The notes beneath the pieces were generated by a model. It did no database searches and was not told where the DNA came from. It was given only the letters and a program-made list of their open reading frames with translations. Below are positions 5,241-8,169 of a DNA stretch of 14,006 nt, piece after piece. The DNA lies in assembly GCF_003334255.1 (NCBI RefSeq), contig NZ_QOWU01000080.1. One strand, written 5' to 3'. The translations under genes were made by a program, and so were the position numbers. The DNA is from Escherichia coli. GTDB taxonomy: Bacteria > Pseudomonadota > Gammaproteobacteria > Enterobacterales > Enterobacteriaceae. Within the stretch, counting starts at the first letter, position 1; each line of letters opens with the position of its first letter.

Positions 5241-5336
5241 TCAATCGATGAACTGACGGATCAGTTCCAGAACTGCAATCAGCGCGTTTGCAACGGCGAC
5301 CACAGCCCTGAGAACGATGATTAACAGGTTAATCAT
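5241..5336 (-). CDS. Candidate type I toxin: 31-aa hydrophobic peptide, DinQ/TisB-like
   Basis: Not in the ORF track (below size cutoff). Translates to MINLLIIVLRAVVAVANALIAVLELIRQFID; GGAG sits 6 nt upstream of the ATG; resembles DinQ as recalled (shared IIVL and ALIA.LELIR blocks). Confidence 0.5.
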   Translation of the reverse strand: MINLLIIVLRAVVAVANALIAVLELIRQFID

Positions 5337-5748: not shown

Positions 5749-6149
5749 TGCCTGTCGTTCGACTGTTCTTCCGTTTTTTCCCTTCATTTGGGGGATTTTC
5801 TTTCAGTTTTTTTGTTAAGTCCAATGCTGCCGGTCGCGTTGGCCAACAGATCAATGCCGTTATCGGCGTTTCCATTAATCCTTTTTTTCAGTAAGTTGCA
5901 GCACAAAAGATGATTAAAAAGCTATCAGTTTTTTTGATGGATACAGTAGCGGCGGTACGCTGCGTGAAATCTGAGGTTTTCGGGTAGGATTGGTCGCGAG
6001 AATTTACGAGAGAGCGACGGGCGGTTTCTGCACTGAGACAAGATACAACCGTTCTTTTTTTTCCCCTTCACGCCGTAGCTGAGCGATCTCGTCTCTGTTA
6101 CGCTGAAGTTCAATGATAGTCGTAATATTTAACTCTTTACCTCTTTCGT

Positions 6150-6166
6150 GGTATACCAGGTATACC
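6150..6166 (+). promoter_or_regulatory. Tandem 8-bp palindromes GGTATACC-a-GGTATACC, candidate operator upstream of the EamA gene
   Basis: Two identical self-complementary octamers separated by 1 nt, about 17 nt upstream of the start codon and just 5' of the AGGAGG ribosome-binding site. Confidence 0.3.
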
Positions 6167-6182
6167 GAAAAAAGGAGGCGTG

Positions 6183-7070
6183 ATGAACAACCAAAACTAT
6201 TTTTTAGTCCGTTGTATGTACGTAATTCTGATGGGACTAGGTTTTCCTATCATGAGATATATGAGTTTAAACTTTGACACATTAAATAACAATGCTATCA
6301 GATTTATCTCTGGAGGTGTTATTTTTTGCATTGTCTGCTTATTAAAGTACAATAACCACTTAAAAAATATAAATATTAAAACAATACTACTGCTTTTTGT
6401 TCTTTCTATTTTCATGACATGTAACATGTTCTTTTTTATTAATGGAATAAAGCATACATCAGCCTTATCAGGGAGTATTTTTAGTATATTAGCAATGCCA
6501 TTAGGTATTCTTGTCGCCAGTTTATTTTTTATTGACGAACGAGAAAGAGCACTTAGCTATAAATTTATAACAGGTTCATTAATTGCAATTATTGGATCAT
6601 TTATTTTTGTTTTTAATGGTTACTCTTTGGATTCCGGCTCATTTAGTTATACAGGCTTTATATTTTTAACCATCGCAATTTGCATTCAATCGATACAAAA
6701 TGTCATTGTTAAAATTGTAGCACAATACCTTCCCGCAATTGTAATTAGTGCGTCAACAGCAACAATTTCAGGGTTAATGTTTTTATTATTAGCAATAAAA
6801 ACAGGCGTTATCACAGAATTATCAGTAACATCCAAAGAATTATTAATATATTTGGTTCTTGCTGGCATATATGGAATGATGACAGGTATGCTTATGGCAT
6901 TTTACATAGTAAAAACACAAGGGGTAACTATTTTTAATATAACTCAATTACTAATCCCCGTATCAACAGGAATTTTTGGATACATCACTTTAGGTGAAAA
7001 AGTTGATCTTATTCAGGCAACAGGAGCAGTGATCATCATTGCTGGCTGTATTTTTGCAACAAAGCGATAA
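6183..7070 (+). CDS. DMT-superfamily (EamA-like) integral membrane transporter
   Basis: ~295 aa, about 10 predicted hydrophobic helices in two repeated halves; AGGAGG 4 nt upstream of ATG 6183 (the track's 6180 start is a GTG one codon upstream); very AT-rich. Confidence 0.8.
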   Translation: MNNQNYFLVRCMYVILMGLGFPIMRYMSLNFDTLNNNAIRFISGGVIFCIVCLLKYNNHLKNINIKTILLLFVLSIFMTCNMFFFINGIKHTSALSGSIFSILAMPLGILVASLFFIDERERALSYKFITGSLIAIIGSFIFVFNGYSLDSGSFSYTGFIFLTIAICIQSIQNVIVKIVAQYLPAIVISASTATISGLMFLLLAIKTGVITELSVTSKELLIYLVLAGIYGMMTGMLMAFYIVKTQGVTIFNITQLLIPVSTGIFGYITLGEKVDLIQATGAVIIIAGCIFATKR

Positions 7071-7080
7071 TGAGGTATTT

Positions 7081-8076
7081 ATGTATAATGTTGGTATTAT
7101 TGGGCTAGGGCAAATAGCTTATTCAATCGATAATGACCCGGCAAGAAAGATTACCTGGTCTCATATAAATGCATACAAAAAGTCTAAAGATACGCAAGTT
7201 ATATCAATCTGTGACATAGATGAAACACAAGTCAAAAAGATATCACAGGAATGTGATATCTATTCAGGGTATACCGATTACAGAGAAATGCTCAAAAATG
7301 AAGACCTCGATATAGTTAGTATTTGCACACCGATAAATACTCATGTTCAAATAATAAAAGACTGCATAAAGCATAATGTCAAAGCTATATTTTGTGAGAA
7401 GACAATATCATACAGTCTGGATGATTCGAGTGAAATCGTTGAATTATGCAAGAAAAATAATGTAGTACTGGCTGTTAATCATGTCCGTCGATGGGATGAT
7501 TTTAATCAAAAAATAAAAAATATAATTACACAAGATAATTATGGCGATATTTATACTATTGACTGCTATGGTGGAACGGCACTCCATACCAGTACAAGTC
7601 ACTTAATTGACTTAATGTGCTTCTTTTCTGATTCAGAGCCAGAATGGAGCATTGGATGTAAACAACAGGATTATGTTCGTAATGTTCACGGTGTACATGA
7701 TTACGGGGGCACAGGGTTTATAAAATTTAAAAATGGAATTATTGGGATAGTAAAATCAAATTCATCTTCTGAATTTAATATTTGCTTTGAAATTGATATT
7801 GCATGTAAAAATGGAAGAGTTATTATAACTGACGCTGGAGATACATGTGAGTTTTATAAATTTACACACAGTAATAGTTCGAGTGGTAGTCATTACAAAA
7901 CGTTATCTCTCGTACATAAAATATATAAAAATCAAACTGAAAGAATGATCAATGCTGTAAATAATATCGTTATGGCATTAAAAAAAGATCAGCAAGTCAA
8001 ATCAACAGGTCAAACATCATTAGCTTCCATCAAAATAATCAGTGGTATTTTATCTGAGGAAAAAACATTATTCTAA
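7081..8076 (+). CDS. Gfo/Idh/MocA-family NAD(P)-dependent oxidoreductase
   Basis: N-terminal Rossmann motif MYNVGIIGLGQIA; GAGG 5 nt upstream of ATG 7081. The track's 7039 start overlaps the previous gene and lacks a ribosome-binding site. Confidence 0.8.
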   Translation: MYNVGIIGLGQIAYSIDNDPARKITWSHINAYKKSKDTQVISICDIDETQVKKISQECDIYSGYTDYREMLKNEDLDIVSICTPINTHVQIIKDCIKHNVKAIFCEKTISYSLDDSSEIVELCKKNNVVLAVNHVRRWDDFNQKIKNIITQDNYGDIYTIDCYGGTALHTSTSHLIDLMCFFSDSEPEWSIGCKQQDYVRNVHGVHDYGGTGFIKFKNGIIGIVKSNSSSEFNICFEIDIACKNGRVIITDAGDTCEFYKFTHSNSSSGSHYKTLSLVHKIYKNQTERMINAVNNIVMALKKDQQVKSTGQTSLASIKIISGILSEEKTLF

Positions 8077-8081
8077 TTTGA

Positions 8082-8113
8082 TATCCTCCATGTACAGAGA
8101 AACGTGGAGGATA
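8082..8113 (+). terminator. Hairpin after the oxidoreductase gene (terminator-like, no clear U-tract)
   Basis: 11-bp stem TATCCTCCATG / CGTGGAGGATA with one G-U pair and a 10-nt loop, 6 nt after the stop codon. Confidence 0.35.
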
Positions 8114-8126
8114 CCAGTAAATCAGG

Positions 8127-8160
8127 GGAAGCTTGTCCCCCCCAGAAAGAACAAGCTTCC
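8127..8160. terminator. Second hairpin between convergent genes
   Basis: Perfect 10-bp inverted repeat GGAAGCTTGT / ACAAGCTTCC with a 14-nt C-rich loop; could serve the minus-strand gene ending at 8170. Confidence 0.35.
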
Positions 8161-8169
8161 GAATACAAT

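Follow-up and report, generated by a model that had tools for sequence, protein, structure and literature searches.

A candidate two-repeat NanR operator upstream of a plasmid-borne transporter and oxidoreductase operon in Escherichia coli

Introduction

Which regulator controls an operon that sits on a plasmid as an inserted cassette and carries no regulator gene of its own? The question is raised by a stretch of Escherichia coli plasmid DNA of 14,006 nucleotides (hereafter the window), in which two identical short palindromes stand directly in front of a low-GC operon encoding a transporter and an oxidoreductase. On balance we favour, with modest confidence, the view that the palindromes form a two-repeat operator for NanR, and that the operon is under the control of chromosomal NanR and is induced by N-acetylneuraminate (Neu5Ac). 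This view is based on the match of the site to known NanR operators, on its conservation, on the occurrence of nanR in the host and on the nan neighbourhoods of relatives of the operon.

Results

An inserted operon without a regulator gene

The window comes from an E. coli plasmid of type IncK2/Z and shares 99.9% identity with pECOED of strain ED1a; it is also nearly identical to NZ_CP060058.1, a sister plasmid available as a whole (99.8 kb). Note that the plasmid records are one base shorter than the window. The operon lies in a region of 30-35% GC, compared with about 45% around it, at whose borders homology to related plasmid backbones breaks. In IncX1 plasmids the flanks are joined without the operon, with backbone homology stopping at 6009 and restarting at 8161, while in IncX3 plasmids backbone homology extends to about 6127. 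These breakpoints identify the operon as an inserted cassette that spans approximately 6129-8160. Upstream of the cassette, the minus strand carries dqlB, a gene for a DinQ-like type I toxin (~5241-5336), and a truncated IncX-type backbone ORF remnant (5925-6113) that runs into the left cassette junction.

Both genes of the cassette are on the plus strand. The first (6183-7070) encodes a DMT/EamA-family transporter of 295 amino acids, assigned from the ORF, homologues in Pfam PF00892 and the RefSeq annotation. The second (7081-8076) encodes a Gfo/Idh/MocA-family oxidoreductase of 331 amino acids, counted from MYNVG and assigned from the ORF and from PDB and NCBIfam matches. A repeat search revealed two hairpin-forming inverted repeats on the plus strand 3' of the oxidoreductase stop codon (8079-8093/8102-8116 and 8127-8136/8151-8160), which are probably terminators. 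The second of these ends exactly at the right cassette edge, with backbone homology back at 8161.

The exact transporter protein is present on 858 contigs of the public collection. The oxidoreductase gene is intact in the window and is split or frameshifted in many otherwise identical plasmids, including that of ED1a. Split gene calls were found in the loci L001 (7723-8475), L057, L058, L072 and L075, and the gene is broken also in L076. In Proteus faecis and in the loci L005 and L047 it is deleted. Since the DMT gene is intact everywhere and the enzyme is often broken, the enzyme seems dispensable in Enterobacterales.

No GntR-type regulator gene was found in the cassette, and the plasmid annotation lists none. 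NanR, the best candidate, is encoded on the chromosome, and 5410 of 5426 complete E. coli genomes have nanR. A preliminary description of the locus had noted that the cassette holds no regulator and had placed control in trans. Both points stand: because no GntR regulator is annotated on the plasmid and nanR is chromosomal, control would be exerted in trans.

The paired octamers are non-random and occur once on the plasmid

The self-complementary octamer GGTATACC is present at 6150-6157 and again at 6159-6166, with a single A between the copies (window sequence around the site, cgtGGTATACCaGGTATACCgaaaaaaGGAGGcgtgATG), as originally described. The pair is located ~20 nt inside the left cassette edge and ends 16 nt before the ATG (6183) and 7 nt before the GGAGG of the Shine-Dalgarno sequence (6174-6178). 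The 17-bp site as a whole is palindromic, so that GGTATA-N3-GGTATA can be read on both the plus and the minus strand.

To the preliminary description, a motif at background frequency would have spoken against a regulatory role. The window contains four copies of GGTATACC, compared with 0.12 expected, and none of 200 dinucleotide shuffles reached four. The paired octamers are thus real and non-random. The two lone copies are both in coding sequence, at 1846-1853 (codons V-V-Y-R of an ABC ATPase) and at 7268-7275 (G-Y-T-D segment of the oxidoreductase). We rejected these as regulatory sites, as both are intragenic and have no partner repeat, and NanR binds single repeats poorly.

The same description had suggested a search for further pairs on the replicon, and here the outcome was negative. 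The sister plasmid NZ_CP060058.1 has a mild excess of the octamer over its 99.8 kb (five copies versus 0.7-1.5 expected), with one pair only, and there is no second pair or other GGTATA-N2-3-GGTATA besides this site. This points to a single site of a chromosomal regulon rather than a plasmid-wide motif. One of the lone octamers on this plasmid, at position 54641, is within a coding sequence. When a 33-nt query across the pair was compared with the 5426 complete E. coli genomes, it matched only five plasmids, all bearing this cassette.

Two minor features of the site were noted. The centre of the site, CCAGG (6156-6160), is a Dcm methylation site (CCWGG). It is present in the window lineage only, other lineages having CTAGG, CTAAG or CCTTT, and binding could be influenced by methylation of the spacer. 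In the interval from the site to the Shine-Dalgarno sequence (6167-6173), six consecutive A are found in the window and five in each of the 15 other copies of the same type, a difference that may be due to a sequencing error or to variation in homopolymer length.

The site is an island of conservation

We compared 29 copies of the cassette and its relatives, which fall into four upstream haplotypes. The window type (16 copies, transporter identity 100%) has the 17-mer GGTATACCAGGTATACC. L004, with a transporter identity of 97%, has GGTATACTAAGTATACC (15/17 positions identical to the window). The L005 type, represented by 10 copies in a different plasmid context with a transporter identity of 78%, has GGTATACCTTTGATACC (13/17), and L047/L069, the most divergent at 66%, have GGTATACTAGGTATACC (16/17).

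The extent of conservation can be seen from the comparison of the window with L047. The 17-mer is 94% identical (16/17), versus 72% for the coding sequences. In contrast, the 80 nt upstream match at 52 positions, which is at random level (shuffle mean 47.5), and the stretch between the site and the ATG is identical at only 9 of 18 positions. Homology between the window and the L005-type cassette, the 78% variant carried by other plasmids, begins exactly at 6149. In total, the site is retained in four different plasmid contexts. That the 17-mer forms an island of conservation speaks for a cis-acting element, and against chance or a transposition footprint.

This pattern also bears on whether the site has any function. 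The palindrome might have arisen by chance, a 9-bp stretch might have been duplicated in tandem, or transposition or recombination might have left a footprint at the edge of the cassette, all of which we consider very improbable. The proximity of the site to the left cassette junction (~20 nt), together with the start of L005-type homology exactly there, would be in line with such an origin, and GGTATACCA/GGTATACCG is formally a 9-bp tandem duplication. Nine base pairs is the length of many target-site duplications. However, the two copies are adjacent, with nothing inserted between them, and a target-site duplication or footprint was rejected on the conservation of the 17-mer, set against flanks at random level and a coding sequence at 72%, as well as on its persistence in different plasmids.

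Where the four haplotypes differ, the changes are mainly concentrated in the central 3-5 nt, with TGGTATAC and ATACC(A) kept. The second hexamer is degenerate in two of the haplotypes (AGTATA in L004, TTGATA in L005), and the CC behind it does not vary. Judged from these sequences, an outer palindrome of 19 bp, TGGTATAC-N3-GTATACCA, fits the conservation slightly better than two hexamers. Both the degenerate hexamer and the better fit of the outer palindrome count against NanR as the regulator. So does the distribution of the motif, which was found neither in front of the DMT genes at 36 loci from Pasteurellaceae, Clostridia, Fusobacteria and spirochaetes nor in front of the chromosomal transporter copy of P. 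faecis (90% protein identity).

The site resembles the NanR operators of E. coli K-12

NanR binds GGTATA repeats spaced by 2-3 nt (PMC3658417); its site has also been given as direct repeats of TGGTATAW (PMC4494728). One dimer occupies each repeat, placing one of its winged helices on GGTATA and the second on neighbouring DNA outside the consensus. Two repeats are bound with a KD of about 25 nM, giving two complexes, whereas binding is poor with a single repeat and is lost when the spacer is lengthened by six bases (PMC8012715). As read from the K-12 genome, the operators of nanA and nanX (yjhB) are tgatcTGGTATAACAGGTATAAAGGTATA. At nanC the third repeat is GGTGCA, leaving only two perfect repeats.

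The window sequence TGGTATACCAGGTATA matches TGGTATAACAGGTATA, which represents repeats 1-2 of the K-12 nanA, nanX and nanC operators, at 15 of 16 bases. The T ahead of repeat 1 and the CA at the end of the spacer are among the matching bases. The site can thus be read as TGGTATA-CCA-GGTATA, with the same 9-bp phasing as in the K-12 NanR operators. We therefore annotate 6149-6166 (plus strand) as a candidate two-repeat Nan box, comprising T, a first GGTATA at 6150-6155, the spacer CCA, a second GGTATA at 6159-6164 and CC. Two direct hexamers, the minimum for a Nan box, are also found on the minus strand. The spacer is within the 2-3 nt of known boxes and reads CCA, compared with ACA between repeats 1 and 2 in K-12. 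A search of the window together with 55 kb of K-12 sequence located GGTATA-N2-3-GGTATA at the three nan operators and this site, and nowhere else. From 46 fifteen-mers within one mismatch, divided by 4^15 and multiplied by 200 to 28,000 positions, we calculated that a 15/16 operator match directly upstream of an operon is expected by chance ~1e-5 to 1e-3 times, which argues further against a site without function.

The likeness to the Nan boxes of nanATEK-yhcH, nanXY (yjhBC) and nanCMS extends to the arrangement. These share the 9-bp period of TGGTATA/AGGTATA repeats, the spacer ending in CA and the position just upstream of the first gene, and their regulator is chromosomal and acts in trans, as we propose for the plasmid site. 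There are also differences. The site has two repeats and not three as at nanA and nanX, with GAAAAA following the CC in the third position. However, a third repeat is not strictly required, given the GGTGCA at nanC and the affinity of NanR for two repeats. Unlike in the K-12 boxes, the hexamers are extended to perfect GGTATACC palindromes that read the same on both strands, and the site is carried by a plasmid, within a foreign cassette of low GC content. The TTGATCT flank common to the three K-12 nan operators is absent, and no CRP site of the kind found at nan promoters was detected within 3 mismatches in the 280 nt upstream of the site. The lack of a third repeat, of the TTGATCT flank and of a CRP site all weigh against NanR. 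A Nan box as such is a known kind of operator; what would be unusual here, as far as the sequence tells, is that it is carried on a plasmid, has two repeats and is perfectly symmetric.

The core TGGT-NN-ACCA of the site is shared with the UxuR/ExuR boxes of the hexuronate regulon, and UxuR belongs to the same protein subfamily as NanR. Another regulator, either a FadR-subfamily GntR protein such as UxuR or some further dimer recognizing the 19-bp palindrome, might therefore use the site, a possibility that we regard as unlikely. The stretch TGGTATACCA (6149-6158) forms the palindrome TGGT-N2/3-ACCA of UxuR/ExuR boxes and fits the FadR-subfamily consensus TKGT/ACMA with the 2-nt GT..AC spacing reported for UxuR (PMC4494728); boxes in the K-12 UxuR region read TTGGTCAACCAT, GTGGTTAACCAA and TTGGTTGACCAG. 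Substitutions clustered in the centre are moreover what would be expected of the half-sites of a symmetric dimer. On the other hand, a UxuR box consists of a single palindrome that has a YR centre and is flanked by A/T-rich sequence, whereas here two units overlap, offset by 9 bp, and have AT at the centre and G/C in the flanks. The flanks AAATTGGT...ACCAATTT are missing and are TTCG and GGTA instead. Overlapping boxes 9 bp apart are a known arrangement for NanR and not for UxuR. Furthermore, no hexuronate gene (uxa, uxu or exuT homologue) is located near any of about 50 DMT loci, while nan genes are found near DMT loci in three contexts. As to the 19-bp palindrome, a candidate regulator for it is neither in the cassette nor annotated on the plasmid.

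The operator for a dimeric regulator seen in the preliminary description is thus supported as a general idea, in so far as the 17-mer is conserved where its flanks are not. Its assignment of the units was probably not correct: rather than two independent palindromic octamers, the functional units are more likely either 9-bp-phased TGGTATA direct repeats, with one NanR dimer each, or the larger palindrome.

Under control by NanR, a GntR/FadR-family repressor of the sialoregulon, two dimers would cooperate in binding the TGGTATA/AGGTATA units, located downstream of the presumed promoter and ahead of the ribosome-binding site, and would prevent transcription of the plasmid DMT transporter and Gfo/Idh/MocA oxidoreductase operon. 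N-acetylneuraminate would release NanR and so induce the operon. In this way the acquired cassette would be wired in trans into the sialoregulon of its host. We infer the binding of NanR, the repression, the inducer, the position of the promoter and a substrate related to sialic acid.

Promoter and leader of the operon

At nanA, the NanR operator is located downstream of the RNA polymerase site (PMC8012715 summary, operator-promoter geometry). For the plasmid operon, a consensus scan of 6000-6180 detected no sigma-70 promoter, a further point against regulation by NanR. By eye, we identified a putative -10 element, TAATAT, on the plus strand at 6123-6128. It is 21 nt upstream of the site, has a poor -35 and straddles the backbone/cassette junction. 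Similar hexamers are found in L005 (TATATT) and L047 (TATATG), 5 and 17 nt upstream of the respective sites. In the earlier placement of the palindromes between a likely promoter and the ribosome-binding site, the promoter is thus the weaker part.

The leader might instead, or in addition, act as RNA. The palindromic pair would form a GGUAUAC-N3-GUAUACC hairpin capping a stem in the 5'-UTR, in which an anti-SD sequence pairs with the Shine-Dalgarno sequence, so that translation would be limited or the mRNA stabilized. Such an element could coexist with a DNA operator; we think it quite improbable. In the predicted fold of the window leader (-16.2 kcal/mol, z -2.6), the pyrimidine tract CCTCTTT (6140-6146, plus strand) pairs as CCUCUUU with the AAGGAGG Shine-Dalgarno sequence of the transporter gene (6172-6178, plus strand), which is 4 nt before the ATG. 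The L004 leader is predicted to form a near-perfect helix of ~19 pairs, which at -24.4 kcal/mol (z -6.4) is more stable than any of 200 shuffles. Here the changes flanking the palindrome on both sides (CG to UU, one G lost) lengthen the helix, and both changes within the 17-mer are in the 3-nt loop. At 4957-4997 of L004, the inverted repeat is extended to CTCCTTTTTGGTATAC-TAA-GTATACCAAAAAGGAG, burying the Shine-Dalgarno sequence in the helix.

In contrast, the L005 and L047 leaders fold no better than their shuffles (z -1.1 and -1.3). L005 breaks two of the stem pairs without compensation, and its -10-like hexamer is only 5 nt upstream, so that the U tract is probably not transcribed. The 7-bp stem is identical in the window, L004 and L047 despite 28% divergence of the coding sequence, with no covariation, which points to sequence-specific recognition rather than recognition of shape. 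A search of 5900-6400 against Rfam produced no match at E <= 1.

Relatives of the operon in the neighbourhood of sialic acid genes

The closest chromosomal relative of the cassette lies in the nan cluster of Proteus faecis, in which the gene order is nanA-nanT-esterase-nanC-nanM-esterase-nanR-nanS-DMT. The transporter gene is the last of the cluster and is followed by the remnant of a deleted oxidoreductase gene. The NanR encoded there (L003 2998-3699, L011 6001-6699) is 51% identical to E. coli NanR and lacks the N-terminal extension of 30 residues through which several dimers of the E. coli protein bind cooperatively. As we found no GGTATA repeats in the intergenic regions of the P. faecis nan cluster that were read, the operator of P. 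faecis NanR is probably different.

In a spirochaete MAG, the order is ROK regulator-DMT-Gfo-NanA-like lyase-YhcH-like-esterase. On a Klebsiella plasmid, the L047 variant adjoins the lyase gene that heads an RpiR-regulated nanT/nanE/nanK/nanQ island. Relatives of the transporter are thus found beside nan genes in three unrelated contexts. Most DMT homologues have no nan neighbours, which is among the points against NanR control. A sialic-acid catabolic island (lyase, RpiR regulator, MFS transporter, nanE, nanK and nanQ) is present in L056, the K. pneumoniae plasmid p90CM2-172k (9003-14799), where it is bracketed by vapBC copies and IS110.

The layout of the operon recalls that of nanXY (yjhBC), which encodes a 2,7-anhydro-Neu5Ac transporter and the NanY oxidoreductase: a transporter gene followed by a gene for a Gfo/Idh/MocA enzyme, behind a GGTATA-repeat operator. 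The transporters differ, as NanX is an MFS protein of 405 amino acids, compared with the DMT/EamA protein of 295 amino acids here. We considered the oxidoreductase as a NanY/NanOx orthologue and rejected this assignment, which likewise counts against NanR. YjhC (6o15, E 1e-5) and RgNanOx (6z3b, E 8e-9) match in the Rossmann/NAD part only, and unrelated dehydrogenases score better than either. The NCBIfam matches of the oxidoreductase were all far under the family cut-offs.

The eight described families of sialic-acid transporters include no DMT family (PMC8461474). A more far-reaching and rather doubtful proposal is that the DMT/EamA transporter and the Gfo/Idh/MocA enzyme constitute a ninth system for the uptake and processing of sialic acid or a derivative, which came from a Morganellaceae-like donor, spread on plasmids of Enterobacteriaceae and was captured by the host sialoregulon via a symmetric two-repeat NanR operator. 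The Proteus chromosomal copy is without the operator, and one lineage is directly upstream of a SPATE autotransporter gene. In this lineage, which comprises the 78% DMT variant on E. coli plasmid contigs (L061-L068; e.g. L067 1478-6820), the cassette always directly precedes a Peptidase_S6 (SPATE) gene, and its oxidoreductase is reduced to an 83-amino-acid stub. Control of SPATEs by NanR has been suspected in Citrobacter rodentium, without demonstration (PMC10334811).

If regulation by NanR is correct, the NanR regulon of E. coli would not be fixed at three or four chromosomal operons, and a mobile, acquired operon would have joined it through a minimal two-repeat operator. It would provide a clear example of plasmid cargo being connected, in trans, to a circuit with which the host senses nutrients. 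The DMT-family transporter would also become a candidate importer, in gut E. coli, of a sugar acid derived from host glycans.

Intact DMT-Gfo pairs were also observed on very small contigs, in L025 (Bisgaardia, 4.7 kb) and L044 (Cetobacterium, 4.7 kb), and in addition in L026 (Glaesserella). The ORFs neighbouring the pair in L025 and L044 resemble relaxase or mobilization genes. If they are such genes, the DMT-Gfo pair would also travel on small mobilizable plasmids in Pasteurellaceae and Fusobacteria.
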